Origin: Candidatus Latescibacterota bacterium
Lineage (GTDB): Bacteria; Latescibacterota; UBA2968; UBA8231
Reading direction: 5' to 3'
DNA length: 64,000 nt
Assembly: GCA_965206595.1 (NCBI GenBank)
Contig: OZ242214.1
Location: 1,280,001-1,344,000 of the forward strand
The position numbers and the translations under genes are program-made. Below are positions 24,840-49,264 of this stretch, one piece after another; positions within the stretch are counted from its first letter, which is position 1; every line of letters begins with the position of its first letter. The notes under the pieces are model-generated. The model was not told where the DNA came from, did no database searches, and saw only the letters and a program-made list of their open reading frames with translations.

Positions 24840-27800
24840 ATGGGGGCCGCTGGCCACCTGTTCGCCGCCGCCCTCTGCCTTTCGCTCGCCGCGGCCGCGG
24901 CCGCCGACCAGGCCGCCCGGCTCACCGCCGACATAGAATTCCTGACCTCGAACGGCTCGCGCGCCGTCGGTTATCCGGGCGCCGCCGCGGCTGCCGGTCG
25001 GATCGAAGACCGCTTCCGCGATCTCGGGCTGACCGACGTGCGCCGCCGGGAGTACCGGGTCGGAATGCCGGTGGACCGCGGCGCCTCCCTCGCGGTCGAA
25101 GAGACCGGCCTGTCGATTCCCCTCCTGTGCATGTGGCCCAACCTCGTGCGCACCCCCACCCTTCCGCCCGCAGGCCTGCGCCTGCCGCTGGTGTACGCCG
25201 GCGGCGGCGAGTGGGCGGAGCTGAACGGGCGCGAGCTCGAGGGCCGCGCCGTTCTCATGGAGTTCAACAGCGGTCTGAACTGGATGCGACCCGCCTCCCT
25301 CGGGGCCGCTGCCGTGCTCTTCATCGAGCCGGAGGAGACGACCGCCAGGGAGGCCCAGCGCAAGTACGCGGTCGCCCCTCTCGATGTTCCGCGCTTCTGG
25401 ATCGACAGCCGCTCCGGGAAGCGGCTGCGCCGGCGCCTCGATGAAAAAGGGGAGCTGGCGGTAACCCTGCGCGGGCGCATGGACTGGGAGATGCGCCCGG
25501 CGTGGAACCTGACCGCGTTTCTGGAGGGCGCCGACCCGGAGCTCGCCGGAGAGACGGTGGTGCTGCAGGCTTACTACGACGCCGCCTCGGTGGTTCCCGC
25601 CCTGGCCCCGGGAGCGACCGCTGCGTGCGGGATCGCCGCCCTGCTCGAAACCGCGCTCCATCTCGTCGAGCAGCGTCCTGCGCACAGCGTCCTCTTTCTC
25701 GCCACCTCCGCCCATTACCAGGCGCAGCAGGGGATCGTCGACTTCGTCAACCGGCGCGCCCGCACTCACGAGGAGTACTCCGCCCGCTACGGGGAACCGC
25801 TCGACATAAGCCTTTTCGTCGGATTCGACCTCTCCGGGGGCAGCGACCAGCTGGGGGTATGGAACAACCTGTCCGGCGACGAGCTGCGCCGCTTCTTCCT
25901 CCCGTACTCCCGCGTCTTCATGGCCCACGGGGAAGCGGCCGCAGGGGAGCTGGGACGGGATGCCGAGCGCGCCTTCTTCAACGGCGTCAGTCCGGTCCGC
26001 GGCAGGAGCTGGGAATCGCTCGCACCGGGGGGAATCAACCCCGACGCGGGATGGGTTCACGCCGCGGGAGTGCCTGCCCTCACTCTGGCCACGGTCAACG
26101 ACGGCCGGCAGTCGGAGTCCACCCCACTCGACCGCGCCGTCGACATCGGCAACCTCGACCGCCAGGTGGAGCTGCTGAAGCGGACGCTCGCCGGGGTCCT
26201 CAACAATCCCGAGCTGTCCTCCGGGCGCGCGGCCCTGGCCGGGGTCGTCAAGGACCGGATGCGGGATCTCCTCGTCCAGGCGCGGCAGTATCCCAGGCGC
26301 AGCCAGACTCCCGACCGTCCGGTGCCGGGCGCCCTGGCAGTGCTCAACACCTACGACAAGCAGGAGACCGGCGTTCACGGGCAGCGGGTGGCAATCGCCG
26401 ACGGAGACGGCAACGCCGTCTTCAGGGGGATTCCCTCCACCGCGGAGAAGCTCGCCGCCTTCGAGCTCGACCCGAAATCGGGGGCGATCCTCGCGGCGCC
26501 CGACCTCGCCAAGCGCGCCTCCCAGCACCACGGGAAACCGCTGCCCACCGGTTATCTCAGGGCCGCGGCGAACCGGTCGATAAACATCCGGACGATCGTG
26601 CTGTTCAAGACCCGGGGCCGCGAGATCTACTCCCTCATCAGTCCGCGGTCGCTGCTGGGGTACGGGGCTCCGACGGTCATGAACCAGGGCGGCGCCGAGC
26701 CGCGGCAGTACGGGTTCCTGCTCAGCAAATACCCGGAAGAACCTGCCGGAGTCCTGTTCGGTCCGGCCCTGGGAGGCGAGGAGAACCGCCTGCGGTTCTT
26801 CTTCGGCGGGCTGCTGGAACAGCGGCTGCTGCTGCTGAACAGCAAGGGGCACGGCAGCGAGGAGGAGGCCCGCGGCATCGGCTACTCCCTGGGGGAGGAA
26901 GCCCTCACCCGGCTGACGGAGAAAGCGGCGCGCGACATGTGGCGGCTCGACGAGCAGCGGCTCGTGAAGCTCCGCGAGCACTCGATCGGCAGCCGCAGTC
27001 TCGAGCGCCTGCACCAGGGCGCCGGGGAGCTGCTGGAGGAGGCCGCCGCGGCGGCCGCGGAGCTGCGCTGGGACCGCTACGTCGCCAGGGCGCGCGAAGC
27101 CCTCGGCCTCGAGGCGTGCGTCTATCCCCGGATCCTCGAGACCCTCAACGACGTGATCAAGGGGATGGTCTTCTTCCTGGCGCTGGTGGTTCCCGCGGCC
27201 TTCTTCGGCGAGCGCCTGTTCTTCGCCGCCGCCGACATCCGCCGGCAGCTCCTCGGACTGGCGGTGCTGGTGCTGCTGATCTGGATGATCCTCTCGCAGG
27301 TGCACCCCGCCTTCGACATCGCCCACCCGCTGGTGATCGTGCTGGCGTTTACGATCATGGCCATGGCCATCCTGGTGCTTTGGATGGTCAGCGCCCGTTT
27401 CAACAAGACCGCGGCCGAATACCGGTCCCGGGTGGCGCAGGTGCACAAGGCGGACGTATCGCGGTTCGGCGCGGCCTACGTCGCCTTCATGCTCGGCATT
27501 TCGAACATGAGGCGCCGCAAGCTGCGCACGGCGATGACGCTGATCACCCTGACGCTGCTGACCTTCTCGGTGCTGTCGTTCACCTCGTTCGAGGACCGTG
27601 TCCGCTTCGTGGCGATGCCTGCTCCCTTCGAAGGGGAGCGCCAGGGCCTGCTGATCCGCGACCGCAACTGGGGGATGCTGAGCTACCCCGCCTGGGACTA
27701 CGCGCGGTCCCACTTCGGAGCCGCCGCGGTCCTGGTTCCGCGCTACTGGCATTCCGGCCACAAGGGGAGCGCCAGCTACGTCGAGGTGCGCCGCGGGAAG

Positions 27801-30800
27801 AGGGTTGCCCGCGCCCTCGGAATGATCGGGCTCGCCCCCGGCGAGCGCCTGGTGACCGGGGTCGACCGCTGCCTCGTCGCCGGCAGCTTCTTCGAAGAGG
27901 GGGACGAGGAGACCTGCCTGCTGCCGGATGAAATGGCGGATGCCCTCGGCATCTCCGCCGCGGACGCCGGCTCGGTCCGCGTCCGCGTTTTCGGCCGCGA
28001 CCTCCTGGTGCGGGGGATCTTCTCCGCCGCGGCTCTCGACGACCTGCGCGACCTCGACGGCGGCAGCCTGACCCCGATCGACACCCGCGTCGCCGCCTTC
28101 GACCCGCTCGACCAGCTGCTGGAGGCGGCGGAGGAGGAGGGGGGGGAGGAAGCGGCAGTGGTTGAGATGACAGCCGCCCTGCACCTGCCGGCTGCCAACG
28201 TCCTTATCACCCCGCACCGGACGCAGCAGGACTTCGGGGGGTCTCTTCACTCGGTGGCGGCGCGCTTCCGCGAAGATTCACGGCCGGTCGAGCTCATCGA
28301 GAAGTACCTGCTGCGCGTCGCCGCCTTCATGTACGCCGGAATCCCCGACGACGCCGGCGGCATCTCCGTGTACCGCTACAGCTCCGTCGGGCTGACCTCG
28401 GTCCAGGGGCTGGGAGCGCTGGCGATACCGGCGGTGATCGCGGCGATGATCGTCCTCAACGCCATGCTCGGCGCCGTGTACGAGCGCTTCCGCGAAATCG
28501 GCATCTACTCCTCGGTCGGCCTGGCTCCCGTCCACATCTCCGTGCTCTTCCTCGCCGAGGCGACGGTGTACGCCATTCTCGGGGTGACCATGGGGTACCT
28601 CTTGGGACAGGGGCTCGGAAAGCTGCTGATCGCCCTCGACATGCTCTCGGGGATCACCCTCAACTACTCCTCCGTCTCCGCGGTGGTCGCCGCCATCTCG
28701 GTGATGGCCATCGTGCTGCTGTCGACACTCTACCCGGCGCGGGTGGCGGCCAGGGTGGCGGTCCCCGAAGCCGTCCGGCGCTGGCGCCCCCCGGATCCGG
28801 ACGGGGACCGGTGGGTCTTTGCGTTTCCCTTCAACGTCAGCGAGTCCGAGGCCGCGGCAACCTGCGGCTTCCTGCACTCCTTCTTCGCCGCCCACGGCGG
28901 CGCCGTCGGCGGCAGGATGTACACCGAGGGGCTCGCCCTGCAGCGGCGGCAGACCCCGGCCGGGGCGTCGTACAGCATCGACTTCCGCATGTGGCTGTCT
29001 CCGTACGACCTCGGGGTGAGCGAGAAGGTGCGCCTCGAGCTGACCCCCGCGGCAGATGCCCCGGGGCTGTACGCGATCGCCGTGGAGATCGAGCGCGTCA
29101 GCGGCGAGCAGCTGAACTGGCGCCGCCTCAACGGCCCGTTCTTCAAGGTGCTGCGCCGGCAGCTGTTGATCTGGAACACCCTGCCGGCCGAAACCCGCGG
29201 CGGGCACCGGCACACCGCCCAGCGGCTGCTGGAGGCCGGGAAGCAGGAAGAGTCGGAATCTCCGGGGCCGCGACTCGCCGCAGTCCCGGGCGAAGACCCT
29301 GGGGAAACCGGCGAACAGCGCCGGTCGCCGTTCTCCTGGCGGGCAATCGCCATCGGCGCCGCCGGCGCCGCGGCGGTCGGGGTGGGGGCTCCCTACTGCG
29401 TCTTCATGCTCAAAGGGTCCTGGATGGCGATCAACAGCACGGTGCCGATCGCCATCTTCTACTTCTTCATCGTCGTCGTCATCGCCAACGTGATCCTGGG
29501 TCTTGTGGCGAGGAGGTGGGAGCTCCCCAAGGCGGACCTGATCCTGGTCTACGTCATGCTGACCATGGCCGCGGCGGTACCCAACCAGGCCTTCGTCGGC
29601 TACGTCATCCCCTGTATCGCCGGATTCTTCTACTACGCCACCCCGGAAAACAAGTGGTTGGACATGTACCTGGCCGACGTCCCGGAGTGGATGGTCCCCG
29701 ACATCGCCGCCGCGGAGCTGTTGCACGAGGGCCTGCCGCCGGGGGAGCCGGTTCCCTGGCAGGGCTGGGCGGAGCCGCTGACCTGGTGGTACCTCTTCTT
29801 CCTCGCCCTGAGCCTGATGATGATCTGCCTCAACGTGATCCTCCACCGGCAGTGGTCGGTTCACGAGCGGCTCGAGTACCCGATGGTGCAGGTGCCGCTG
29901 CACATGATAGAGCGCTCGCAGGGGGCCTTCGCACCGCTCGGTCCCTTCTTCAGGAACCGCTGGGCCTGGATCGGATTTCTCGTGCCGTTCCTGCTGCTCG
30001 GCCTGGGCGGGCTGCAGCACTACTTCCCGGCGGTTCCCGTCTTCAGCCCGAGCTTCGGCGCCCTGTCGCTGATGGACGGCGCCTTCATTCTCAAGTTCCA
30101 CACCAACTACGCCTGGGTCGGGATTTCCTATCTCGTCAATCTCGATGTCACCATGAGCATCTGGGTCTTCTGGATTCTCGGGGTGTTGCAGAAGGCGCTG
30201 TTGGGCAAATTCGGGGTCGCCCCGACCGAGACCCTGAGCTTCTACTCGCTGCACTCGGCCGACCTCGCCCACCAGGCGACCGGGGCCTGCTGGGTCTTCG
30301 TCGCCTGGGGCCTGTGGGTCGCCAGGCGCCACCTGAAGCAGGTGCTGTCCAACGCCTTCGGGCGCCGGGCGGTCGACGACTCGGAAGAGCTGATCTCCTA
30401 CCGCGCTGCGGTCCTCGGGTTCGCCGCCAGCCTCCTGTTCATCGGCGCCTGGCTGTGGAGGTCGGGGATGCCGCTGGTGGTGCTGCCGATGTTTCTCGTC
30501 TCGGCGCTGATCTTCTACATCCTGGTGACCCGCGTGGTGGCGACCGCCGGGGTGGCCACGGCGCGCTCGCCGATGATCTCGGCGTTCGTCGTCATCTCCG
30601 GCCTCGGCAGCGCCTTCATCGGCACCAAGGGCCTGGTGGCGCTGACCTTCACCTATCTGTGGCACTCGGAGATGCGCCTGTTTCCGATGGTGGTGTGCGC
30701 CCAGAACCTCAAGCTCGCCGAGACCGTCCGCGGCCCCAAGGGGAGGCTGTTCTGGGCGATCTGCATCGCCCTCGTGGTCAGCCTGCTGGCGGCGACCTGG

Positions 30801-31244
30801 ATCATCCTGCATCTCTGTTACACGTACGGCGGCATCAACCTGCACACCTTCTTCATGCAGAGTCAGTCGATTCGCCTTTTCAACGACATGGCCAGGCATA
30901 TCCAGCACCCGGTCGGCCCGGACCTGCGAGGATGGGGGTTCACCGGCATCGGCGCCGCCATCGAAGCCGGCCTGATCTATGCACAACAGCGCTTCTTCTG
31001 GTGGCCCCTGCACCCGGTCGGCTTCGTGATCGCCAACGGCTGGCTGACCAGCCAGATCTGGTTCGCCGTCTTTCTCGGATGGCTGGCGAAGTTCGTCATC
31101 ATGAGGAACGGCGGCATGCAGGTGTTTCTCGCGGCGCGTCCCTTCTTCATCGGGCTGATTCTCGGGGAGGCGACCGCGGCCGGAACCTGGCTGGTGGTCG
31201 ACTATCTCGCCGGCAGCACCGGAAACCAGCTCACCCAGATGTAG
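24840..31244 (+). CDS. ~2134-aa fusion: signal peptide + PA/M28-like (degenerate) ectodomain + MacB/FtsX permease + DUF6785/DUF6784-like multipass domain
   Basis: SRAVGYPG; LVYAGGG..ELEGRAVL (PA); VVLQAYYD..APGA (M28-like); NMRRRKLRT and VYERFREIGIYSSVGL (FtsX); RQWSVHERLEYP and WWPLHPVGF (DUF6785/6784-like). Confidence 0.85.
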   Translation: MGAAGHLFAAALCLSLAAAAAADQAARLTADIEFLTSNGSRAVGYPGAAAAAGRIEDRFRDLGLTDVRRREYRVGMPVDRGASLAVEETGLSIPLLCMWPNLVRTPTLPPAGLRLPLVYAGGGEWAELNGRELEGRAVLMEFNSGLNWMRPASLGAAAVLFIEPEETTAREAQRKYAVAPLDVPRFWIDSRSGKRLRRRLDEKGELAVTLRGRMDWEMRPAWNLTAFLEGADPELAGETVVLQAYYDAASVVPALAPGATAACGIAALLETALHLVEQRPAHSVLFLATSAHYQAQQGIVDFVNRRARTHEEYSARYGEPLDISLFVGFDLSGGSDQLGVWNNLSGDELRRFFLPYSRVFMAHGEAAAGELGRDAERAFFNGVSPVRGRSWESLAPGGINPDAGWVHAAGVPALTLATVNDGRQSESTPLDRAVDIGNLDRQVELLKRTLAGVLNNPELSSGRAALAGVVKDRMRDLLVQARQYPRRSQTPDRPVPGALAVLNTYDKQETGVHGQRVAIADGDGNAVFRGIPSTAEKLAAFELDPKSGAILAAPDLAKRASQHHGKPLPTGYLRAAANRSINIRTIVLFKTRGREIYSLISPRSLLGYGAPTVMNQGGAEPRQYGFLLSKYPEEPAGVLFGPALGGEENRLRFFFGGLLEQRLLLLNSKGHGSEEEARGIGYSLGEEALTRLTEKAARDMWRLDEQRLVKLREHSIGSRSLERLHQGAGELLEEAAAAAAELRWDRYVARAREALGLEACVYPRILETLNDVIKGMVFFLALVVPAAFFGERLFFAAADIRRQLLGLAVLVLLIWMILSQVHPAFDIAHPLVIVLAFTIMAMAILVLWMVSARFNKTAAEYRSRVAQVHKADVSRFGAAYVAFMLGISNMRRRKLRTAMTLITLTLLTFSVLSFTSFEDRVRFVAMPAPFEGERQGLLIRDRNWGMLSYPAWDYARSHFGAAAVLVPRYWHSGHKGSASYVEVRRGKRVARALGMIGLAPGERLVTGVDRCLVAGSFFEEGDEETCLLPDEMADALGISAADAGSVRVRVFGRDLLVRGIFSAAALDDLRDLDGGSLTPIDTRVAAFDPLDQLLEAAEEEGGEEAAVVEMTAALHLPAANVLITPHRTQQDFGGSLHSVAARFREDSRPVELIEKYLLRVAAFMYAGIPDDAGGISVYRYSSVGLTSVQGLGALAIPAVIAAMIVLNAMLGAVYERFREIGIYSSVGLAPVHISVLFLAEATVYAILGVTMGYLLGQGLGKLLIALDMLSGITLNYSSVSAVVAAISVMAIVLLSTLYPARVAARVAVPEAVRRWRPPDPDGDRWVFAFPFNVSESEAAATCGFLHSFFAAHGGAVGGRMYTEGLALQRRQTPAGASYSIDFRMWLSPYDLGVSEKVRLELTPAADAPGLYAIAVEIERVSGEQLNWRRLNGPFFKVLRRQLLIWNTLPAETRGGHRHTAQRLLEAGKQEESESPGPRLAAVPGEDPGETGEQRRSPFSWRAIAIGAAGAAAVGVGAPYCVFMLKGSWMAINSTVPIAIFYFFIVVVIANVILGLVARRWELPKADLILVYVMLTMAAAVPNQAFVGYVIPCIAGFFYYATPENKWLDMYLADVPEWMVPDIAAAELLHEGLPPGEPVPWQGWAEPLTWWYLFFLALSLMMICLNVILHRQWSVHERLEYPMVQVPLHMIERSQGAFAPLGPFFRNRWAWIGFLVPFLLLGLGGLQHYFPAVPVFSPSFGALSLMDGAFILKFHTNYAWVGISYLVNLDVTMSIWVFWILGVLQKALLGKFGVAPTETLSFYSLHSADLAHQATGACWVFVAWGLWVARRHLKQVLSNAFGRRAVDDSEELISYRAAVLGFAASLLFIGAWLWRSGMPLVVLPMFLVSALIFYILVTRVVATAGVATARSPMISAFVVISGLGSAFIGTKGLVALTFTYLWHSEMRLFPMVVCAQNLKLAETVRGPKGRLFWAICIALVVSLLAATWIILHLCYTYGGINLHTFFMQSQSIRLFNDMARHIQHPVGPDLRGWGFTGIGAAIEAGLIYAQQRFFWWPLHPVGFVIANGWLTSQIWFAVFLGWLAKFVIMRNGGMQVFLAARPFFIGLILGEATAAGTWLVVDYLAGSTGNQLTQM

Positions 31245-31250
31245 CCGCCG

Positions 31251-32957
31251 ATGGCCGAGTACCTGACACGACAGGGGCGGGGAACCGCGGCACCGCTGGC
31301 CGCGGTCGGACTGGTGTACCTGCTGACCCTGTTCTGCTTCGAGCGGGACGGCCTGTGGACCACGGACAACGCCGCCAAGTTCCTGCAGGTGCGGGCCCTG
31401 CTGCAGAGCGGCTTCGCCAGCTTCGCCATTCCCTGGCCCGGCAGGAGCATCGACCCGGAGTTCATATACAATCCCATGCCGTTCCACTTCTCGTCGGTGC
31501 GCGACGGCGAGCTGTACTCCGTGTTCTCTCCCGTCTTCGCCATGGTGTCCGCGGTTCCGTACGCGCTCCTCGGCTACTGGGGGCTCTACCTGCTGCCGTT
31601 CGCCTCGGCGCTGCTGATGCTGCGGGCGGTCGCCGGGCTCTGCGCTGTATGCGGCGGAGGCGCCAGGGCCCGGCAGGCCGCGGTCCTGATCGCCGGCCTC
31701 GCCACCCCGGTCTGGTTCTACGGCGTCGCTTTCTGGGAACACTGCGCAGCCGCCTGTCTCTGCCTGTGGGCGCTGCTGTTCTTCGCCCGCTTCGTCGATG
31801 CCGGCGCGACCCGGGATCTCGTGCGCGGCGCCGTCCTCGTCAGCCTCGCGGTCTATCTCAGGGACGATCTCTATCTGCTGTGCGCGCTGCTGGCCCTGGC
31901 CGCCCTTGCGGCCCGGAGATCGAGGTGGCTGCAAACGGCGCTCTGGTGCGGTGGCACCATGGCGGTCTGCCTGGCACCGCTCTGGATCTGGCAGTGGCGG
32001 CAGATGGGCAGCCCGCTCGGACAGCACCTGTCGACCCACCTCGTCTCGTCGGAGGGAATCCTGGGGCACCTCCTCGACAGGCCGAAGGTCTTCTACAACC
32101 TGCTGGTGGCCGCGACCCCGGCGCCGATCGTCTCGATCTTCCTCTCCGCCCCGTTCCTCTACGCCTGGCTGCGCCGCCCGGGGTTCGGCGCCTCCGGCTA
32201 TCGCACCGCCCTTCCCCTGTACGGCGCCGCGGCGACGGCCAGCGCCCTGCTCGCCTTCGCAGGCTACTTCCTCTTCGACAGCCCCCTGGCCTATCTCCTG
32301 GCCTCGTCGAACAGCCTGTTCGCGGCCGCGCCTCTGGCGATCCTCGCCTTCCCGCGCTGCGGCGAAGAGGGACGGGTGCGCCGATGGCTGGCGCACCTGG
32401 CGATCGCCTACGCGGCGCTCTACGCCGTCGCCGCCCCCGACCTCGGCTCCTCCGGCCTGCACTGGGGCAATCGCTTCCTGCTCCTCCTCTACCCGGTCTG
32501 GTCGCTGCTGGCCGCGGTCAACCTCGAGCAGTGGCTGCGGCTGGAAGGCGGCGGCTGGAGATCCTGGAGGTCCTGGAGCCTCGCCGCGGTGGTCGCCGTC
32601 AGCGTCGGGGCGCAGCTGTTCTCCGTCGAGCTGCTGCGCCGCAAGAAGGAGTTCTCCCACCGGCTCAACGACTTCGTCGCGGCGAGCCCGGAGCAGGTGG
32701 TGCTGACGAGCGAGCGCTGGGCAGGGCACGAGCTCCATCGCGTCTTCTACGACAAGCCGGTCTTCTACGTCGAGTATTCCCATGCCATGGACGCCCTGCG
32801 GCAGAAGCTGAAGCAGGCCGGGTACGACAGCTTCCTGTTCCTGACGCGCCGGCAGGGAGTAGTCTGGCCGGCGCCCCCGGTCGCAATCGGGGACGGCGGT
32901 TTGAACTGGTACGGGATGAGGGCATTTTCAGGCAGCACGTCGGCGCGGCCGCGATAA
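31251..32957 (+). CDS. Multipass membrane GT-C-like glycosyltransferase (LA_3751/PMT-like)
   Basis: About 12 hydrophobic segments, WTTDNAAKFLQ in the first loop, FWEH, WGNRFLL. Confidence 0.65.
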   Translation: MAEYLTRQGRGTAAPLAAVGLVYLLTLFCFERDGLWTTDNAAKFLQVRALLQSGFASFAIPWPGRSIDPEFIYNPMPFHFSSVRDGELYSVFSPVFAMVSAVPYALLGYWGLYLLPFASALLMLRAVAGLCAVCGGGARARQAAVLIAGLATPVWFYGVAFWEHCAAACLCLWALLFFARFVDAGATRDLVRGAVLVSLAVYLRDDLYLLCALLALAALAARRSRWLQTALWCGGTMAVCLAPLWIWQWRQMGSPLGQHLSTHLVSSEGILGHLLDRPKVFYNLLVAATPAPIVSIFLSAPFLYAWLRRPGFGASGYRTALPLYGAAATASALLAFAGYFLFDSPLAYLLASSNSLFAAAPLAILAFPRCGEEGRVRRWLAHLAIAYAALYAVAAPDLGSSGLHWGNRFLLLLYPVWSLLAAVNLEQWLRLEGGGWRSWRSWSLAAVVAVSVGAQLFSVELLRRKKEFSHRLNDFVAASPEQVVLTSERWAGHELHRVFYDKPVFYVEYSHAMDALRQKLKQAGYDSFLFLTRRQGVVWPAPPVAIGDGGLNWYGMRAFSGSTSARPR

Positions 32958-40223: not shown

Positions 40224-42830
40224 TCAGCGGTTCAGCCGGGGGCGCAGCTGGTCGACGTAATAGGAGGCCGTCCACTCCCGCGGGTTGATGCGCAGCGCCC
40301 GGGCGTAGGCAGCCAGCGCCTCCCGTCGCTCCTTCCGGTAGCGCAGCACGTCCCCCCGGATGACCTCCTCCCTGGCCCTGAACCAGGTGTCGAGGGTATC
40401 GCCGCGGGCCGGGGTCCAGGCGGGGTCGGCCAGTTCGAGCCAGGGGATGAGGTCGACCGGGCGTTGCTCGGTCTCGCGGGCGAGATCGAGCAGCACCATC
40501 CAGGTGGCTGCCCCGAATCCGCGCGGGCCGACGAAACTCAGGTGGGGATGGTCGTCGGTGTTTAGCGGGCCTTCACCGACGTACCTGCGATACGCTTCGG
40601 ACCCGAAAAAGAAACAGCCGAGGACGGCGAAGGGGCGGTCGAGGTCGACTTCCTCCAGGCTTTTGCGCACCGGGGGCGAGGCGAATTTCTCCATGAGCCG
40701 GCTGTAGGAGATCGACAGGGGGTCGAGGGTACCCACCATGATCGCGTAGTTGTTGGTGCGCCAGAGGCTGGCGTGGGGGAACACGGACTGGAAGGTCCGC
40801 AGGACGGTCTTGAAGTCCCCGACCGGAAGTCCGTGAAACGGCAGCCACTGCACGACGATGCCGCCCGGTTTCAGGCGCGACCGGCACAGCTCGTAGAACT
40901 CCCGTGTGTACAGCAGCCAGCTGTCGGTGCTGGTGGGATGGGTCGCGTCCCCGGTGATGACGTCGTAGCGGCGCCCGGTCCGCAGCAGGAAGTTGCGGCC
41001 GTCGTCGATGATCAGCTCGATGGGATGGTCGTCGAGACGCCCCAGGATCTGGTGATTGTAGGGGCCGAACTCCTTCCGCGCCGCCTCCACGACTTCCGGT
41101 ACGAGCTCGACGCACTGGATGCGGTCGACGTCGTGCTGCGCCACCGCCCCGAGGGCGATGCCCCCGCCCAGGGCCACGACAAGGACGTCCCGGGGGTCGG
41201 GATGCAGCAGCATCGGCAGGTGTCCGAGCAGGCGGAAGAGCTGGAAGGAACCGTAATCGGTGGGGACCTGTGCGCCGTTGTTGAGCAGCATCTTGCGGTA
41301 GCCGTCCCGCTTGCCGGTAATGGTGATGATTCCCTCGGCCCCTTCCTCGTAGAACAGCAGGCTGAACCCGGATTGCGTGGGACGGGACAGCTCTCGCATC
41401 CCCTCCCCGGGAGAAGCGATGATCACCGCGGCCGCGGCGGCCCCGGCCAGGGCCAGGGTTCCCAGCTTCCGTCCGGACCGAAGCAGGGGGTTGGCGGCGA
41501 TGGCCGCGGTCCCGACCAGCAGGTTGAGGCCGCCGAGCAGACGGAAGGTGCCCTCGGTGCCGAAGAGCGGGATCAGCAGGAGGCCGGCGGCGAGGGAGCC
41601 GGCGAAAGCCCCCAGGCTGTTGGCGGCGTTGACGTCACCGACGCCGCGGCCGACCTGCCGAAGGCTCCGGGTGCAGATGCGGCTCACTACGGGAAAGGAG
41701 GCTCCCATCAGCAGGGTCGGCACCAGCATGATGCCGAAGGCCATGGCGAAGATGCCGCCGCGGTAGCTCCACCAGGAGCCCGCCCCCTGGATCGCACCGA
41801 CCCAGTCGGAGGCGGCGGCGAAGAGGGCGACCGAGGCCATCCCCATGAGGCCGACGGCGATCTGGAAGCCCCCGAACATCGACAGCAGGTCGCGGCGACT
41901 GTCGAGAAGGAGGCCGCAGAGGAAGCTGCCGAGGCTGAGGCCGAGCAGGAACGCCATCAGCACGATGCCGAACTCGTAGTGGGAGTTTGCGGAGAAGGCG
42001 ACGATGAACAGGCGCACCCAGGCGACCTCGTAGGCGAGGGCGGCGAACCCCTGGAGGGCGAAGCCGAGGAGAACGGCCTTCAGCGCCAGGGGGGACAGGG
42101 GGATGGTCCCAGGCTCTGACGGCCCCGCTTGCGGAGCCGGCTCCGGGGCCCGTTCCCGGCTGTCCCCTTCCTCCTCCTCCTCACGCGGGCTCCGGACGCC
42201 GCGGCCGATCCAGCAGGCCAGCGATGCCACGAGCAGGTTGACCATGCCGACGGCGTAGCCGCTGCCCCGCAGGCCGAGCTCCTCCATCAGGAAGAAGGTG
42301 ACGCCGGCGACTCCGGCGACGGCCCCGAGGGTGTTGGCGGCGTAAAGCAGGCCGACGCCGCTGCCGAGTTTCCGGAAGCGCCGCACCGAGGACCTCGAGA
42401 TCACCGGCAGCGTCGCCCCCATGGCCGCGGTCGGGATCAGCAGCAGCCCGAAGGCGAGGGCGAAGCGGGCCGCGGCGAAGGCCGACGGGTTGTGCTCCGT
42501 CCACTCGGCCTCGGCCAGCCATCCGGTCGTTGCCAGCAGGTGGGGGAACAGGAAGGCGAAGAGGCCGACCCCGGCCTCGAGGCAGGCGAACACGAGAAGG
42601 GGCCTCCGCACGCCGTCGATCCAGCGTCCGAAGCAGAAACTGCCCAGGGCCAGGCCGGCCATGAAGGCGCTCAGCACCGTGCTCACCGCCGGGAGGGTGG
42701 CGCCGAAGACGACGATCAGCATGCGCGCCCACAGCACCTGGTATACCAGTCCGCACGCCCCCGAGAGCAGGAAGAGGGCCGGCAGCCCCCATACAGGTGA
42801 GGAGCCGGTGCGGTTGTTTTCTGCGTCCAC
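40224..42830 (-). CDS. Fused MFS/spermidine synthase-like protein with a C-terminal TPR
   Basis: SGACGLVYQVLW, MGATLP, YAANTLGA duplicated TM blocks; VELVPEV, DDGRNFL, YTREFY; ALAAYARALRINP. Confidence 0.9.
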   Translation of the reverse strand: MDAENNRTGSSPVWGLPALFLLSGACGLVYQVLWARMLIVVFGATLPAVSTVLSAFMAGLALGSFCFGRWIDGVRRPLLVFACLEAGVGLFAFLFPHLLATTGWLAEAEWTEHNPSAFAAARFALAFGLLLIPTAAMGATLPVISRSSVRRFRKLGSGVGLLYAANTLGAVAGVAGVTFFLMEELGLRGSGYAVGMVNLLVASLACWIGRGVRSPREEEEEGDSRERAPEPAPQAGPSEPGTIPLSPLALKAVLLGFALQGFAALAYEVAWVRLFIVAFSANSHYEFGIVLMAFLLGLSLGSFLCGLLLDSRRDLLSMFGGFQIAVGLMGMASVALFAAASDWVGAIQGAGSWWSYRGGIFAMAFGIMLVPTLLMGASFPVVSRICTRSLRQVGRGVGDVNAANSLGAFAGSLAAGLLLIPLFGTEGTFRLLGGLNLLVGTAAIAANPLLRSGRKLGTLALAGAAAAAVIIASPGEGMRELSRPTQSGFSLLFYEEGAEGIITITGKRDGYRKMLLNNGAQVPTDYGSFQLFRLLGHLPMLLHPDPRDVLVVALGGGIALGAVAQHDVDRIQCVELVPEVVEAARKEFGPYNHQILGRLDDHPIELIIDDGRNFLLRTGRRYDVITGDATHPTSTDSWLLYTREFYELCRSRLKPGGIVVQWLPFHGLPVGDFKTVLRTFQSVFPHASLWRTNNYAIMVGTLDPLSISYSRLMEKFASPPVRKSLEEVDLDRPFAVLGCFFFGSEAYRRYVGEGPLNTDDHPHLSFVGPRGFGAATWMVLLDLARETEQRPVDLIPWLELADPAWTPARGDTLDTWFRAREEVIRGDVLRYRKERREALAAYARALRINPREWTASYYVDQLRPRLNR

Positions 42831-43090: not shown

Positions 43091-45010
43091 TCACCAGCGG
43101 ATGACGTCCCCGATCATGCCGGTGAAGTAGTCGACCACCATCCAGGCGCCGTGGCTGGTCACCTGCCCGAGGACCATGCCGAGGAACAGCGGCCTCAGCC
43201 TGCGGTAGAGGGGGGAGCCGCCGTAGCGCAGGATCAGGAGCTTGAGCAGCCAGGCGATGAACATGCTCGACCAGGCGAAGAACATCATGTAGGTGCCGCC
43301 CACCGGAAACCCGATCGGGTGCAGGGGCCACCACAGGAAGCGGTGCCGGAGCCAGGTCAGGGCGAGCATGGCCGCGGCGCCGGCCGCAGTGAAAGCGCCG
43401 CGCGGGCCGAAGAAATTCCAGTCGTCGACCGGCGTGGAGATCGCGGTGGCGACGTTGCGGAACGACCAGTCCCCCATGATGTGGTAGAACCAGTAATGCA
43501 GGTTGATGCCGCCGTACTCGTAGGCGATGGCGATGATGGTCCAGGCCGAGCTCGCCAGGCTCACGGCGATGGCGAGCATGATCGACCAGAACAGGACCGG
43601 GCCGCGAATCCCGGCGAGGTCGGCGAGCCGCGCGCCGTTGGCGACCGCGGCCATCAGGCTGATCTTGATGTCCCCTGCCCAGCCGTTGCACAACCCCAGC
43701 ACGGTCAGTCCCTGGGCGCCGATCGGCCCGTTGCCGAACGCCATGGCGGTGAACGCCGTCGGCGTCATCTGGGCGCGGCCGTACCCCATCCCCCCTTCGG
43801 CGACGATCTTGGTCAGCCCGAAGAAGACGACGAAGGAGATTCCCATCAGGAACACGGAGACGACCAGGGGCAGCCCCGCCTGGTTGAGGAACAGGACCGC
43901 GTACGCCGTCGCGGCCAGCAGAATCCAGACTGCGGTGCGGTGCCTGAGCAGCCCGTTCCCGTCTCCTTCGTCAGTCCGCGAGAAGGCGGCGCGAAACGCG
44001 GTTTTCAGGTGCCCTCTCGCCGTCCACAAGGCCACCGCGACGAGGGCGATCATTGCGCCCATCGCCTGCTGGGCGGAGGCGATCGACCCTTCGGTGTGCA
44101 TCAGGCGCAGCTCCGGCACCGAGTAGCCGAGGCGTCCGAACAGGGCGAGTTCGACGTAGTAGAACAGATAGAAGAACCACAGGCTGAAGGAAATCTCCAG
44201 GCTGAGGAAGTAGGTCAGGCCGATGACGATGAACCAGATGCTGAACAGCAGGTGGCGGACCTCGGGAAGGACCTCCACGGTCGTCGACAGGCTGATCCCG
44301 GACAGGCCGGTGGTGTAGCGGCTCAGGGCGTTGATGCCGAGCAGCACCATCGGAATGGAGAAGCCGATCCACATCGTCGAGTTTTTCAGGAACGGGTTGA
44401 TCCTCCCGCCGTCCTCCTGCACCATGTCGGCCGGCAGCTGCACGAGCGGGTAGACGAGGCGCTCGTGGTGGGCCCACTGCCGGTGCATGAGCGCCACCAT
44501 CGAGATCATCATCAGGTAGAGGGCCAGGACGAAGGAGCCCCAGGCGGCCAGGGGGACGAACCAGGCGTCCCAGGGAATCGGCTGCCCTTTTGGCAGCCCC
44601 TCGAAGAAGTAGAAGACGGCGAGGTCGTCCTGCGGTACCAGCCAGGATTTCAGGTGCGGGTGAATGAGCTCCGACCAGGCGTTCTCCGGCGTCGCGTAGT
44701 AGAAGACCTCGGCGAGAAAGGGGATCAGCTGCGCGGTCAGGCCGACCGTGGGAATGGCGGTGGCGACGATCATCATCGTGTAGACGAGGACGAGTTCCTG
44801 CGACGACAGGGCCCACTGGCGCCGCACCAGCACCAGCGGCGTGTTGTAGACCAGGATCAGGAGAAAGAGCAGCAGGATCGCCCCGCCCGAGATGAAGTCG
44901 CCGGTCCAGTTGAAGGTGCCCATGACGAGGACGCCGTACGACATGACGACGTTGATCACCAGGCACATCAGGGTGCCGATGAACAGGGCTTTGAGGGGAA
45001 ATCGTTTCAC
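43091..45010 (-). CDS. DUF6785/DUF6784-like multipass membrane protein (putative peptide transporter)
   Basis: FYYATPENAW, FEGLP...PWDAW, RQWAHHERLVYP, YEYGGINL, WWPLHPIGF. Paralog of the C-terminal third of 24840..31244. Confidence 0.8.
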   Translation of the reverse strand: MKRFPLKALFIGTLMCLVINVVMSYGVLVMGTFNWTGDFISGGAILLLFLLILVYNTPLVLVRRQWALSSQELVLVYTMMIVATAIPTVGLTAQLIPFLAEVFYYATPENAWSELIHPHLKSWLVPQDDLAVFYFFEGLPKGQPIPWDAWFVPLAAWGSFVLALYLMMISMVALMHRQWAHHERLVYPLVQLPADMVQEDGGRINPFLKNSTMWIGFSIPMVLLGINALSRYTTGLSGISLSTTVEVLPEVRHLLFSIWFIVIGLTYFLSLEISFSLWFFYLFYYVELALFGRLGYSVPELRLMHTEGSIASAQQAMGAMIALVAVALWTARGHLKTAFRAAFSRTDEGDGNGLLRHRTAVWILLAATAYAVLFLNQAGLPLVVSVFLMGISFVVFFGLTKIVAEGGMGYGRAQMTPTAFTAMAFGNGPIGAQGLTVLGLCNGWAGDIKISLMAAVANGARLADLAGIRGPVLFWSIMLAIAVSLASSAWTIIAIAYEYGGINLHYWFYHIMGDWSFRNVATAISTPVDDWNFFGPRGAFTAAGAAAMLALTWLRHRFLWWPLHPIGFPVGGTYMMFFAWSSMFIAWLLKLLILRYGGSPLYRRLRPLFLGMVLGQVTSHGAWMVVDYFTGMIGDVIRW

Positions 45011-45123: not shown

Positions 45124-46026
45124 GTGGGTATCGCCAGGCGCGCGGTTCTCTACGGCGCTCCCATCCTGATCGGCCTCTACCTGCTGGCGCTGCTGGCCGC
45201 CCGGGTCCGCGGGCCGGTGCCGGCTCCCGGACATCCGTACTTCGCGGGCACCGGGTTTCTCGTCATCGCCCACCGCGGCGGAAGGGGGATGGGTCCGGAG
45301 AACACCCTGCCGCTGTTCCGGGAGGCGGCGGCGGCCGGGGCGGACGTCCTCGAGATGGACGTGCGCTTCAGCACCGACGGGGTGCTCGTCGTGCATCACG
45401 ACCGCACCGTCCGCCGTACCGCCGGGGGGGGCGGCCGCGTCGACTCGCTGACCGCGGCGCAGCTGTGGGAACTCGACGCCGGCTTCGCCTGGACCCGCGA
45501 CGGCAGGAGCTACCCGTTCCGCGGCAAGGGGTACCGGATCCCGCGGCTGGCGGAGGTGCTGCGCGCCTTTCCCGGTCAGCGCATGATGATCGAGCTCAAG
45601 CCGCGGCTGCGGCGCGCCGCCGAGGCCCTGTGCGGGGAGATCCGCGACGCCGGGATGCAGTACCGGGTGGCGGTCGCCGGCTTCGACGGAGACACGCTGG
45701 ACGCCTTCCGCGGCCTCTGCCCGGAGGTCGCCACTTCGGCCGGCGGCGGGGAGGTGATCGCCTGGAAGGCCCTGCACCTGCTCGGGCTGGGGAATCTCTA
45801 CGCTCCGGAGTTCGCGCTGTTTGCGGTGCCGGAGCGGATCGGGAGGTTGCGGCTCGTCGACCGCGGCTTCGCCTCAAGGGCCCGGGAGCGCAACCTGCCT
45901 GTGCAGGTCTGGACCGTGAATGAAACCGAAGATATGCAGCGGCTGATCGACCTCGGGGTGACCGGCATTCTGACCGACCGCCCGGTACGGCTGCTCGAGC
46001 TGCTGCGCGATAAAGGACTGAGATGA
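45124..46026 (+). CDS. Glycerophosphodiester phosphodiesterase
   Basis: IAHRGG..PENT, EMDV, HHD, IELK, WTVN, GILTDRP; N-terminal TM segment. Start uncertain (45064 or 45124). Confidence 0.92.
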   Translation: MGIARRAVLYGAPILIGLYLLALLAARVRGPVPAPGHPYFAGTGFLVIAHRGGRGMGPENTLPLFREAAAAGADVLEMDVRFSTDGVLVVHHDRTVRRTAGGGGRVDSLTAAQLWELDAGFAWTRDGRSYPFRGKGYRIPRLAEVLRAFPGQRMMIELKPRLRRAAEALCGEIRDAGMQYRVAVAGFDGDTLDAFRGLCPEVATSAGGGEVIAWKALHLLGLGNLYAPEFALFAVPERIGRLRLVDRGFASRARERNLPVQVWTVNETEDMQRLIDLGVTGILTDRPVRLLELLRDKGLR

Positions 46027-46733
46027 AGGACGAAGTGCTGGTAGCGAACGGCCTGACCAAGACCTACCGGAGCGGCAACCGCTCCTCCCCCCTCACCGTG
46101 CTCAGCGACGTCAGCTTCTCGGTGCCGCGCGGCTCCACCTGCGCCGTGGTCGGCCCCTCGGGAAGCGGCAAGACCACCCTGCTCGGGCTGTGCGCCGGCC
46201 TCGACCGCGCCTCCTCGGGATCGGTGGTGCTCGACGGCATGGCCCTCGATGAACTCGACGAGGACCAGCGCGCCCGCCTGCGCAACGAGAAGGTGGGGTT
46301 CGTGTTCCAGACCTTTCAGCTGGTGCCGACCCTGACGGCGCTCGAGAACGTGTCGGTGCCGCTCGAGCTGCGGGGTGAAAAGGGAGTCGAAGCCCAGGCG
46401 CGCGAGCTGCTCGAGCGTGTCGGACTCGGCCACCGCACCGGCCATTACCCGGCGCAGCTCTCCGGCGGGGAGCAGCAGCGGGCCGGGCTGGCGCGCGCCT
46501 TCATCAACCGGCCGCGGATCCTGTTCGCCGACGAGCCGACCGGCAATCTCGATACCGAGACCGGCGGGGTCGTCGCCGACCTGATGTTCAACCTCAACGA
46601 GGAGGCGGGCACCGCGCTGGTGCTGGTGACCCACGACCTCGAGCTGGCCGGGAGGGCAGGACGGGTTATCCGCCTGCACGGCGGCCGTATCGCCGAGGAC
46701 TCCGGGCCCCCCGGCGGGACGGTGAGCGCCTGA
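46023..46733 (+). CDS. ybbA: ABC transporter ATP-binding protein (YbbA-like)
   Basis: GPSGSGKT, LSGGEQQR, ADEPTGNLD, VTHD. Confidence 0.9.
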   Translation: MKDEVLVANGLTKTYRSGNRSSPLTVLSDVSFSVPRGSTCAVVGPSGSGKTTLLGLCAGLDRASSGSVVLDGMALDELDEDQRARLRNEKVGFVFQTFQLVPTLTALENVSVPLELRGEKGVEAQARELLERVGLGHRTGHYPAQLSGGEQQRAGLARAFINRPRILFADEPTGNLDTETGGVVADLMFNLNEEAGTALVLVTHDLELAGRAGRVIRLHGGRIAEDSGPPGGTVSA

Positions 46734-49264
46734 TGGACTGGGTTCTGCGCATGGCCTGGCGGGACAGCCGCGGCCGCCGCGGCCGGCTGCTCCTGCACAC
46801 CGCTTCCATCGCCGTGGGGATCGCCGCCCTGACCGGGCTGCGCGGGTTCTCGCGCACCATGGAGAGGAACGTCGACGAGCAGGCGGCCACTCTGATGGGG
46901 GCCGACGTCGAGATCGAGAGCCCCACCCCTTTCGAGGGGGAGCTGGGGGGTATCGTCGATTCGCTCGCCGCGCTCGGCGGCCGCAAAGCGGAGGAGGCGG
47001 AGATGAACTCGATGGTCCTGTTCCCGGCTTCCGGCGGCAGCCGGCTTGCCCGGGTGCGCGCCCTGCAGGGGGGATTCCCGTTCTACGGCGAGCTCGGCAC
47101 CGACCCTCCTGAAGCCGCGGCCGCCTGGCAGTCCGGGGGCATGGCCCTGGTCGACGACGGCATGATGCTGCAGTACGGCGTCGCCGTAGGCGACACCATC
47201 CGCGTCGGCCGCGAGAGCCTGGCGATCGCCGGCCGCCTGCTGAACCTGCCCGGGGAAACGGCCTTCCGCAGCGACCTGCAGCCGGTCGTCTTCATGCCGC
47301 TGAGCCGCATCGGGCAGACCGGGCTGATACAGCGGGGAAGCCGGGTGCGCTACCGCGCTCATTTCCAGCTGCCCGTAGGCACCGACGCCGCGGCCCTGTC
47401 CGCCTCCCTCGATGAGCGGCTCGAACGCTTCGACGCCGGCATCGAAACGGTGGAGGACCACAAGCGGCGCCTCGGGCGCACCCTGCGCAACCTCTACCGC
47501 TTCCTCGGCCTCGGCAGCTTCGTCGCCCTGCTGCTCGGGGCGGTCGGCGTCGCCAGCGCCATCCATGCCCACGTCGAGCAGAAGCTGGAGACCATCGCCG
47601 TTCTGCGCAGCCTCGGGGCCGCCTCCGGGGCCGCCCTGCGCATCTACCTCGTGCAGGCCTTCGCCATGGGGCTGATCGGCTCGCTGGCCGGGGCCGCGGC
47701 CGGCACCGCCCTGCTCTGGCGGCTGCCGGCCCTGCTCGCCGATTTCCTCCCGAAAGAGCTGGGAGAGCTGCAGGCGGCGCCGTCGCTGCCGGCCCTGGGC
47801 GAGGGCGTGGCCGCGGGTTCGGCCATCTCCCTGGTGTTCGCGGCCCTGCCGCTGCTCGCGGTGCGCCGGGTGTCGCCGCTGCTGGCGTTGCGCGCCTCGT
47901 ACGAGGCGGAGCCGGGCCGCAGCGACCGCCTCGCCCGCGCCCTGCTGCTGGGGCTGGCCGCCGGGGCCACCTTCCTGCTGGCATGGGCTCTCGCCGGGCG
48001 CCCGGACCACGCCCTCTACTTCGCCGGCGGAACCCTGGCGGCGCTGCTGCTGCTGGCGGCGACGGCGCGCCTCCTGCGCGGCGCCCTGCGCCGCTTCCTG
48101 CCCTCCTCCTGCGGCTACCTGCTGCGCCAGGGACTGGCAAATCTCTACCGCCCCCACAACCAGACCCTGCTGCTGCTGGCCAGTCTCGGCCTCGGCACCT
48201 TCCTCGTCGCCGCCCTCTACACGGCGCAGACCTCCATTCTCGGGCACGTCAACAGCGTCGCCGGCGGCCAGCGGCCGAACATGGTGCTGTTCGACATCCA
48301 GAGCGACCAGAAGGAAGCGGCCGCCGCCCTGGTGCGGGAGATGGGGATGCCGGTGATGCAGGAGGTCCCCGTGGTCGCCACGCGGCTGCGGGAGGTGAAG
48401 GGAAAAACAGTGGAGGAGCTTCTGAGGGACGGACCGCGCCGGGGGCGCTGGGCCCTGCGCCGCGAGTACCGCGTCACCTACCGCGATTCCACCACCGCAA
48501 CCGAGGAGATCGTCGCCGGGCAGTGGCGCGGGTCGGCCGCGGACACCGCCTTCATCTCTCTCGAGCGCAGGCTGGCGGAGGCGCTCGACGTCGCGATCGG
48601 GGACCGGCTCCTCTTCGACGTCCAGGGGGTCCCGGTCGAGGTCGTCGTCGGCAGCCTGCGGCAGGTCGAGTGGCAGCGCATCATGCCGAACTTCCTCGTC
48701 CTCTTTCCCGCCGGGGTCCTCGAGGAGGCGCCCCAGTTCCACGTTCTCGTCACCCGCTCCGGCGACGCCGAAACCCGCGCCGGGCTGCAGCGGCGGGCGG
48801 TCGGCGACTTTCCCAACGTATCGGTAATCGACCTCGACCTGGTCCTGATCACCGTCGACAAGGTGCTCGCCAAGGTCGCCGTGGTGGTGCGCTTCGTCGC
48901 CCTGTTCAGTATCGCCACCGGTCTCGCGGTGCTCGCCGCGGTGGTCACCGGCAGCCGTTTCCAGCGCCTGCGGGAAAGCGCCCTGCTGCGCACCCTGGGA
49001 GCCAGTCGCGGCCAGGTCGGGAAAATCCTGCTGATCGAGTACCTGCTCCTCGGCGGGCTCGCCGGGCTGGTCGGCTTGCTGCTGGCGATGGCCGGGGGCT
49101 GGGCCCTGGCGGCCTTCGTCTTCGAGGTCACCTTCGCGCCCTCCTGGCAGGCCCTGGGATTCGCCCTGATCGCCGTGCCGCTCTGCACCGTGCTCGCCGG
49201 CCTGCTCGGCAGCCGCGGCGTCCACCGGGCCCCGCCCCTCGAAGTGCTTCGGCAGGCAGACTGA
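46733..49264 (+). CDS. ybbP: ABC transporter permease (YbbP-like, duplicated FtsX)
   Basis: AWRDSR, FPFYG, IAVLRSLGA, FDIQ.DQ, ESALLRTLGA. Confidence 0.88.
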   Translation: MDWVLRMAWRDSRGRRGRLLLHTASIAVGIAALTGLRGFSRTMERNVDEQAATLMGADVEIESPTPFEGELGGIVDSLAALGGRKAEEAEMNSMVLFPASGGSRLARVRALQGGFPFYGELGTDPPEAAAAWQSGGMALVDDGMMLQYGVAVGDTIRVGRESLAIAGRLLNLPGETAFRSDLQPVVFMPLSRIGQTGLIQRGSRVRYRAHFQLPVGTDAAALSASLDERLERFDAGIETVEDHKRRLGRTLRNLYRFLGLGSFVALLLGAVGVASAIHAHVEQKLETIAVLRSLGAASGAALRIYLVQAFAMGLIGSLAGAAAGTALLWRLPALLADFLPKELGELQAAPSLPALGEGVAAGSAISLVFAALPLLAVRRVSPLLALRASYEAEPGRSDRLARALLLGLAAGATFLLAWALAGRPDHALYFAGGTLAALLLLAATARLLRGALRRFLPSSCGYLLRQGLANLYRPHNQTLLLLASLGLGTFLVAALYTAQTSILGHVNSVAGGQRPNMVLFDIQSDQKEAAAALVREMGMPVMQEVPVVATRLREVKGKTVEELLRDGPRRGRWALRREYRVTYRDSTTATEEIVAGQWRGSAADTAFISLERRLAEALDVAIGDRLLFDVQGVPVEVVVGSLRQVEWQRIMPNFLVLFPAGVLEEAPQFHVLVTRSGDAETRAGLQRRAVGDFPNVSVIDLDLVLITVDKVLAKVAVVVRFVALFSIATGLAVLAAVVTGSRFQRLRESALLRTLGASRGQVGKILLIEYLLLGGLAGLVGLLLAMAGGWALAAFVFEVTFAPSWQALGFALIAVPLCTVLAGLLGSRGVHRAPPLEVLRQAD

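Follow-up and report, generated by a model that had tools for sequence, protein, structure and literature searches.

A natural fusion joins an M28-FtsX protein to a DUF6785/DUF6784 permease of predicted OPT fold in a Latescibacterota genome

The gene at positions 24840-31244 of a 64,000-nt stretch of Candidatus Latescibacterota bacterium DNA (assembly GCA_965206595.1, contig OZ242214.1, positions 1,280,001 to 1,344,000; hereafter the window) encodes a protein of 2134 residues in which two partners of a membrane module conserved through the Latescibacterota are fused. The first partner, an M28-FtsX protein, combines an outer head of predicted M28 peptidase fold with a MacB/FtsX-type module, and the second is a permease composed of the Pfam domains DUF6785 and DUF6784, which is modelled with the fold of OPT/Yellow-Stripe-like (YSL) transporters. 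Because the same parts are encoded by neighbouring genes in related bacteria, the M28-FtsX protein and the OPT-fold permease very likely work as one membrane machine. With a probability of about one half, we read this machine as a receptor-assisted secondary transporter, in which the head would be the receptor, the FtsX module would provide coupling and the OPT-fold part the path, with no dedicated ATPase.

The usual view is that MacB/FtsX modules transmit force with ATP as the power source and that OPT transporters are proton symporters in need of no partner. Here, both module types are locked together, covalently in the window gene and through their neighbouring gene positions in most relatives. 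The natural fusion sets a 1:1 ratio of the partners and offers one polypeptide for expression and cryo-electron microscopy. It also makes testable whether an FtsX module works without ATP or is served by a shared orphan ATPase. No description of DUF6785, DUF6784 or an M28-FtsX/OPT-fold module was found in the papers searched, where the results for combined topics were judged by title and abstract opening.

The fused gene and its split relatives

The gene is organized as follows, in window coordinates and protein residues.

24840-31244 (+): whole fusion gene, 2134 residues (protein P0002), a single open frame
24846-24902 (+): N-terminal hydrophobic segment, residues 3-21, a signal peptide or membrane anchor (hydropathy; predicted local distance difference test score, pLDDT, 54-63)
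24897-26234 (+): PA and predicted M28-fold head with a remodelled metal site, residues ~20-465 (profile matches, Foldseek, VIA-align)
25566-25733 (+): replaced metal and catalytic motifs, residues 243-298 (Y245/Y246/D247, T260, H292/Y293; HMMER and MAFFT alignments)
26247-26879 (+): second outer domain, beta-rich, residues ~470-680 (strands E474-E665 in the AlphaFold model)
26913-27149 (+): helical stalk into the membrane, residues ~692-770 (helices H692-713, H719-740 and H744-789 in the model)
27153-27389 (+): three extra transmembrane (TM) helices, residues 772-850, ahead of the FtsX module (hydropathy; near-invariant alignment columns)
27477-28739 (+): single MacB/FtsX-type module, residues ~880-1300, with TM1, a periplasmic domain and TM2-4 (Pfam FtsX, profile matches)
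28779-29261 (+): cytoplasmic alpha/beta domain, residues ~1314-1474 (structural model)
29262-29333 (+): low-confidence linker at the fusion joint, residues ~1475-1498 (pLDDT < 50 at model residues 166-181)
29334-31217 (+): permease of predicted OPT/Yellow-Stripe fold, DUF6785 at residues 1499-1997 and DUF6784 at residues 2032-2126 (Pfam, Foldseek, VIA-align)

The first plausible start codon is the ATG at 24840, located 48 nt past the stop of an upstream PHP-family gene, and the stop codon ends at 31244. The G+C content at third codon positions (GC3) is 0.89 throughout the frame. Pfam places FtsX at residues 1195-1305 (E 1.1e-10; 42 bits, with a cut-off of 25.5), followed by DUF6785 (E 7.9e-113; 378.1 bits, gathering threshold 25) and then by DUF6784 (E 3.2e-28; 98.3 bits, gathering threshold 26.4). 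Hydropathy locates the extra TM helices at 772-790, 804-822 and 832-850, FtsX TM1 at 899-917, a periplasmic domain up to ~1190 and TM2-4 at 1195-1297, after which a soluble stretch (~1300-1500) leads to at least 12 hydrophobic segments between residues 1503 and 2120. An initial annotation of the window, made from the sequence alone, had described a single open reading frame (ORF) of 2134 residues with this domain order, and its block coordinates deviate by no more than a few tens of bases from the ORF, Pfam and hydropathy results.

The fusion is genuine, as that annotation had supposed, and not an assembly artefact. Among the 120 best homologues of residues 1-700, 11 have the fused architecture (FtsX, DUF6785 and DUF6784 within 2105-2146 residues), each on a separate contig, with identities of 94%, 87% and, in nine cases, 46-50%. 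The remaining 109 are 1368-1832 residues long and have no DUF6785 or DUF6784 domain. The junction at ~29250-29330, for which the annotation had advised a check of read support, is bridged by contigs: a 6089-nt Logan contig from runs X7/X8 (one sample, possibly the source) covers 28600-30000 without differences, and a 512-nt contig from a different study (run X11) crosses the joint, since it spans 29061-29534. It is hardly credible that the long ORF resulted from mis-assembly or a lost stop codon. The fused form is indeed rare, being found in three of the 80 loci described below and once (P0126, 2120 residues, a C-terminal fusion) among the best 150 DUF6785 cluster representatives, but the 11 fused homologues lie on their own contigs and are mostly divergent, two fused loci (L010 and L011) belong to other assemblies, one bridging contig is independent and GC3 is unchanged along the whole ORF.

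Relatives of the M28-FtsX part were collected in a one-genome-per-species scan that returned at least 496, and the best 80 loci were taken with 10-kb flanks and sorted by a frame-and-stop test. A DUF6785/DUF6784 gene is located immediately upstream of the M28-FtsX (anchor) gene on the same strand in 60 loci, immediately downstream in three (L072-L074) and fused to it in three (L009, L010 and L011). The initial annotation had interpreted the window gene as a Rosetta-stone fusion, and this reading holds because permease and anchor are fused or directly adjacent in 66/80 loci. The DUF gene is within 10 kb and non-adjacent in four loci, lying 421 nt upstream in L012, ~3 kb downstream past one gene in L014 and L018, and 4.5 kb away on the opposite strand in L063. 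Five loci have less than 2.2 kb of upstream sequence, with no DUF copy seen in it, and three with full flanks (L055, L056 and L083) show no DUF6785/DUF6784 gene. The anchor gene is cut in the last two (L022 and L075), with the DUF gene just ahead of it in both.

A second multipass protein of ~880-1070 residues (e.g., P0125, L014:14407-17052) directly follows the anchor in 39 of the 77 loci with a called anchor, and both partners occur together in 31 loci. It is further marked by a Cys-rich stretch and by an acidic insert rich in D, E and G. P0125 has no Pfam or NCBIfam match, and its profile has no PDB match at E <= 10; a weak hhalign similarity to the N-terminal part of the DUF6785 profile was obtained (65% probability, E 6e-5, 196 columns). 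The window's own genome encodes five giants of the M28-FtsX type, four of which have a DUF6785-type protein or the second (~880-residue) multipass protein as a partner, either fused on or encoded by the gene that follows: the window gene is fused, one giant is followed by a DUF6785 gene and two by the second partner. Neither partner was found inside the 20 kb fetched around the fifth.

A quick maximum-likelihood tree of 70 anchors groups the window protein with L009 and L011 (Shimodaira-Hasegawa-like approximate likelihood-ratio test, SH-aLRT, 92; long branches), apart from the anchors whose DUF gene lies downstream. The tree excludes anchors cut to fewer than 1300 residues and L010, whose anchor was not called, and its rows designated 'upstream' by default include L031, L063, L067 and L084, in which the upstream side is missing or different. 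This topology is consistent with a single origin of the fusion, although it does not prove one. Several other long frames were considered and rejected as fusions. Those of L070, L072 and L073 are spurious long open frames in high-GC DNA according to the frame-and-stop test, and frames of 1962-3030 residues in G110, G114, G165, G166 and G057 were discarded as fusions with a DUF6785-type permease.

Predicted folds of the permease, the head and the FtsX module

According to its structural model, the DUF6785 plus DUF6784 region has the OPT/YSL fold, which sequence methods had missed. With the model of residues 1310-2134 (pLDDT 89.6; predicted template-modelling score, pTM, 0.85), Foldseek returned barley Yellow Stripe 1 (HvYS1; 7wst_A) at E 1.1e-7, probability 1.00 and a target-normalised template-modelling (TM) score of 0.69, while the runner-up had E 1e-2 and a TM score of 0.09. 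VIA-align, which searched 48,161 representative chains without a Foldseek pre-filter, aligned 556/600 residues with HvYS1 (7wsr_A; Z 23.6, root-mean-square deviation 4.0), and its runner-up (Z 9.1) matched the small cytoplasmic domain rather than the permease. The fold is assigned because both programs single out HvYS1, and the guess in the initial annotation that the last domain might be OPT-like was therefore right. The model provides a first structural placement for Pfam DUF6785/DUF6784.

While the last 640 residues resemble OPT/YSL transporters (HvYS1, PDB 7WSR/7WST) in predicted fold, they differ from HvYS1-type proteins in several respects. Identity to OPT/YSL structures is 11-13%, Pfam OPT (PF03169) has no match in the last domain at E <= 10, and the DUF6785 profile has none in the PDB at E <= 10. 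The family is bacterial, is present in ~38 full-length copies in this genome, and has a subset that is tied to an FtsX-type partner. In PMC9691689, HvYS1 is described as a proton-driven symporter that forms a homodimer and for which an elevator-like model is proposed.

The head is predicted to adopt the M28 alpha/beta fold and to be incapable of forming the classical two-zinc aminopeptidase centre. Pfam M28 (PF04389) gave no match at E <= 1 in the 2134-residue protein, which falls below the gathering threshold, and a precomputed PF04389 match is present in many homologues. A family profile (A1), built from a 37-sequence alignment, was used to search the PDB. The best matches were the Aneurinibacillus aminopeptidase 2ek8 (E 6.9e-13, 50.1 bits) and B. 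subtilis BSAP/YwaD 6hc6 (E 2.8e-11), with alignments that span the N-terminus and the PA insert up to the Glu-Glu position; weaker matches were obtained to the Vibrio/Aeromonas aminopeptidase (1.1e-4) and nicalin (9.5e-4, 19.8 bits), and none to nicastrin at E <= 1. With the AlphaFold model of residues 1-790 (pLDDT 89.4, pTM 0.87), the top Foldseek matches were 2ek8 (E 8.1e-24), BSAP, transferrin receptor 1, PaAP, 3iib and GCPII. VIA-align gave BSAP at Z 27.6 (379/406 residues aligned, PA domain included), the Aeromonas aminopeptidase at Z 27.1 (260/291 aligned), transferrin receptor at Z 24.4 and GCPII at Z 23.9. Active bacterial enzymes lead both lists, and neither nicalin nor nicastrin is among the best 50 entries of Foldseek or VIA-align.

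Metal-site residues were assigned from the HMMER alignments with 2ek8 and BSAP and from a MAFFT alignment that included four genuine M28 peptidases encoded in the same genome. Of the five zinc ligands, four are replaced (Zn-His by Y245, the bridging Asp by T260, the Glu ligand by Y293 and the second His by A403), as is the catalytic Glu, by H292, a His that does not vary across the 37 aligned sequences. D330, the Asp of the NxD motif, is the sole zinc ligand to be kept, and D247 is kept as well. Profile, structure and residue alignments all confirm the M28-like head with a PA insert and three replaced motifs that the initial annotation had described, and the aligned sequences indicate that the classical di-zinc centre is lost family-wide. 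The pocket is nevertheless under constraint, since Y245, D247, H292, D330 and W341 vary little or not at all among the 37 sequences, and such conservation points to a working site of another kind, for binding or for altered chemistry.

One alternative follows the second of these options and keeps the head as an enzyme, in which a novel metal or acid-base centre (Y245, the Glu found at position 260 in most members, H292 and D330) would trim a periplasmic substrate, and the permease would import the product. The invariance of the pocket fits this proposal, as does the His fixed at the catalytic-Glu position, given that the title of PDB entry 2anp calls the Aeromonas E151H mutant 'functional'. 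At the bridging position, 102 of the 115 pattern-matched homologues (out of 120) have Glu, nine have Asp, two Thr, and one each Gly and Asn. However, the window protein itself has Thr there, so that four of five ligands stay lost in it, and two ligand positions are aromatic (Y245 and Y293). We therefore consider an enzymatic head decidedly unlikely.

The head thus resembles the bacterial PA-M28 aminopeptidases (BSAP/YwaD, 2EK8, P. aeruginosa PaAP), which provide the best profile and structural matches with the PA insert included, and is distinguished from them by its four replaced ligands and catalytic Glu and by its tethering to a membrane machine. It has the M28 fold and a PA-type insert in common with nicalin, nicastrin and the transferrin receptor, which have likewise lost their active site and differ in partners and topology. 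The initial annotation had proposed a specific kinship with nicalin and nicastrin, and a relative of this sort, concerned with membrane-protein handling, is very improbable here. Nicalin did supply the sole matches in a single-sequence PDB search, at non-significant E values of 0.42 and 0.83 over residues 222-273, and in nicalin too, an M28-fold outer domain is attached to multipass membrane partners. Both of these matches cover the stretch around the bridging Asp, a motif general to M28. By the yardstick that the annotation itself had named, the kinship fails because the head is no closer in sequence to nicalin than to generic M28 proteins. The profile search favours the active PA-M28 enzymes (6.9e-13 and 2.8e-11 versus 9.5e-4), these bacterial enzymes are also the top structural matches, and the head is paired with a transporter-fold protein and an FtsX module, neither of which is an insertase or a protease.

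Some homologues of ~1570-1630 residues, including P0071 and P0118, have an insertion of ~100-130 residues in the M28-like domain after a conserved R-H-A-R stretch. The beta-rich domain that follows the head has no Pfam match at E <= 10 (residues 471-687).

The FtsX assignment is founded on a Pfam score above the cut-off, on four TM helices and on a periplasmic domain that follows the first of them. In the PDB, the A1 profile matched MacB, LolC and YtrF chains at E values of 4e-9 to 3e-6, a range that reaches 0.045 with LolF and FtsX included, and the MacB chains aligned with profile positions 1134-1313. The coupling-helix motif E-R-F-R-E-I-G (residues 1215-1221) lies in the cytoplasmic loop that follows TM2 and recurs as E-R-x-R-E-I-G in 105 of the 120 homologues. 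The ~160-residue cytoplasmic domain after TM4 is conserved in fused and split forms and has no Pfam match; its model is confident, and its best VIA-align matches (Aha1-C/START-like, KA1 and BamC-N) have Z scores of 7-9, too weak to name a fold. The module is thus similar to type VII ABC permeases (MacB, LolC/LolE, FtsX, YtrF) in its FtsX domain, four-helix module, large periplasmic domain between TM1 and TM2 and coupling-helix motif. It departs from them in that three extra TM helices and an outer assembly of ~770 residues lie ahead of it and an extra cytoplasmic domain behind it, in that the window copy is fused to a 640-residue permease, and in that no ATPase gene is provided in cis for the window gene or adjacent to the anchor in the loci of 80 relatives.

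Energy supply and the working model

The initial annotation had noted that no ABC (ATP-binding cassette) ATPase gene is adjacent to the giant gene, and the wider survey bears this out. None of the genome's five giants, the one in the window included, has an ABC_tran match within 15 kb. Across the family, an ABC nucleotide-binding domain occurs within 10 kb in 5/80 loci, two of the five being MalK-type, and an ABC ATPase is adjacent to the M28-FtsX gene in 0/80. Stand-alone DUF6785 paralogues of the genome likewise mostly lack one (ABC_tran in 2 of 132 neighbouring ORFs). The ABC_tran match nearest to the giant is at 46101-46541, beside an ordinary double-FtsX gene. This is an ordinary pairing located 15 kb downstream, with an ABC ATPase gene at window 46023-46730 (+) followed by an ORF with two FtsX domains at 47513-49234 (+).

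In order to find orphan ATPases, all ABC ATPases of the genome were compared with those beside ordinary FtsX genes, and two lookalikes without an FtsX neighbour were obtained. The one at C1:3559322 was rejected, as it adjoins an ABC-2 permease. The other is an FtsE-like ATPase of 250 residues (C1:1463879-1464628; L128:5880-6629) encoded between uvrB and a short-chain dehydrogenase gene, with no permease gene alongside, and is 52% identical to the FtsE-like ATPase with which it was compared. Orthologues (81-88%) are present in 5/5 sampled genomes of the same family, with the dehydrogenase neighbour kept and no FtsX gene within 1.5 kb. Genomes of another family each have two ATPase paralogues (53-58% identity), one adjoining an FtsX gene and one not. 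The orphan FtsE-like protein is a candidate partner in trans for the giants.

In the receptor-assisted secondary transporter that we favour, the OPT-fold part would form the path through the membrane and, by analogy with HvYS1, could act as a proton-coupled importer of a small organic solute, for which a peptide, a metal chelate or a glycan breakdown product are candidates. The remodelled head would serve as a substrate-capturing or gating receptor rather than as a classical aminopeptidase, the stalk and FtsX module would transmit the head's state to the permease, and the machine would need no dedicated ATPase. The narrower proposal of a new importer class, in which a pseudo-aminopeptidase head captures the substrate and an ATPase-free FtsX module relays signal or substrate to a proton-driven OPT-fold permease, is rather unlikely. 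If true, it would represent the first FtsX-type mechanotransducer to dispense with ATP and the first transporter of OPT type to have an outer receptor of its own.

Several points weigh against a receptor-assisted secondary transporter. The coupling-helix motif, which docks the ATPase in MacB-type proteins, is kept in 105/120 homologues and would be hard to explain if an ATPase never binds. The orphan FtsE-like ATPase is present in the genome and its relatives, and the head could be an enzyme with a different metal centre. Transport, substrate and direction are argued from analogy. Finally, known MacB/FtsX modules are described as ATP-driven mechanotransducers in reviews, and no ATPase-free one is known to us.

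The first two of these points would be accommodated by an ATP-driven machine, in which an ABC ATPase supplied from elsewhere in the genome and shared by several giants hydrolyses ATP to move the dead peptidase-like domain and thereby activates or gates the OPT-fold permease or a periplasmic enzyme. The orphan ATPase retained without an FtsX gene nearby in all five sampled genomes of the same family, and the second family with one paralogue beside FtsX and one apart, agree with it. So does the precedent of EnvC, a dead peptidase-type regulator on FtsX (PMC7668044). Yet no ATPase is linked to the giants (5/80 within 10 kb and none adjacent), the orphan could serve another system, and the conserved ~160-residue cytoplasmic domain after TM4 might fill the docking side. 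We regard the ATP-driven machine as possible but less likely, and rank a proton-driven model without ATP somewhat ahead of an ATP-driven one that uses the shared orphan FtsE-like ATPase.

In either case, the design is reminiscent of FtsEX-EnvC: a peptidase-like domain without a catalytic metal site, a helical stalk and an FtsX module. In FtsEX-EnvC, the regulator is a separate M23-fold protein with a dead LytM domain and the system has FtsE, whereas the window head has an M28 fold by prediction, is fused in cis and has no linked ATPase.

Neighbouring genes and spread of the families

Two genes of the window were annotated in addition to the fusion gene.

31251-32957 (+): downstream gene for a 568-residue putative membrane glycosyltransferase of LA_3751/LA_3752 type (NF047440 match)
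43511-44995 (-): stand-alone DUF6785/DUF6784 paralogue (Pfam match)

The glycosyltransferase-type gene starts 7 nt past the stop of the giant gene and encodes a multipass protein with an NF047440 match at E 8.5e-57 (193 bits, with a cut-off of 200). A member of its cluster also follows the fused gene in L009. The giant gene and this neighbour may form one operon. Near the fused genes, PhyH-type dioxygenase genes were found in 4/4 loci (window, L009, L010 and L011), PHP-type metallohydrolase genes in 3/4 (window, L010 and L011) and FG-GAP/ASPIC genes in 3/4 (L009, L010 and L011).

Genes for DnaJ-domain, CesT/YbjN-like, PspA/IM30 and amine-oxidase proteins are located two to five genes downstream of the anchor in 17-24 loci (e.g., L024:18024-19135), and the PspA gene among them suggests a possible connection with membrane stress. 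At window 40227-42830 (-), an 868-residue protein fuses a major facilitator superfamily (MFS) transporter to a spermine/spermidine-synthase domain, and a similar MFS/spermidine-synthase fusion is found five to six genes downstream of the anchor in 16 related loci. At window 52499-52786 (+), an open frame of 657 residues contains a partial match to M28 that covers profile positions 1-78 (E 9.4e-10).

In order to estimate the spread of the M28-FtsX family, three A1-profile matches were scored per genome. The profile matches 168/168 sampled genomes of the phylum, 155 of them at E <= 8.6e-89 and usually in several copies. The other 13 all belong to one family and have a weak match (E 5e-7 to 2e-14), which most likely represents generic FtsX or M28 proteins. 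In a search of 1.84 billion representatives, the DUF6785 profile matched 7818 clusters at E <= 1e-3, of which 2899 reach E <= 1e-30. The permease family has undergone a very large expansion in the window's genome, where PF20581 has 47 matches, ~38 of them full length.

The ORFs at positions ±1 and ±2 around 37 of the paralogues were compiled, and 132 of the 142 were searched, with the ten longest left out. They include seven FG-GAP/ASPIC proteins, five xylose-isomerase-like TIM barrels (two with UxuA), four enolase-superfamily and four PhyH proteins, three BNR, two sulfatase, two GHL10 and two Gfo/Idh/MocA proteins, one GH32/43 and one DHDPS protein, as well as nine transposase-like ORFs and the two ABC_tran matches mentioned above; many have no match. 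These neighbours hint that the DUF6785 paralogues take part in uptake tied to carbohydrate or sugar-acid catabolism, a loose pattern that fixes no substrate for the fused copy. Lastly, six sequencing runs labelled sponge, marine or plain metagenome contain 5-6% of the sampled words.

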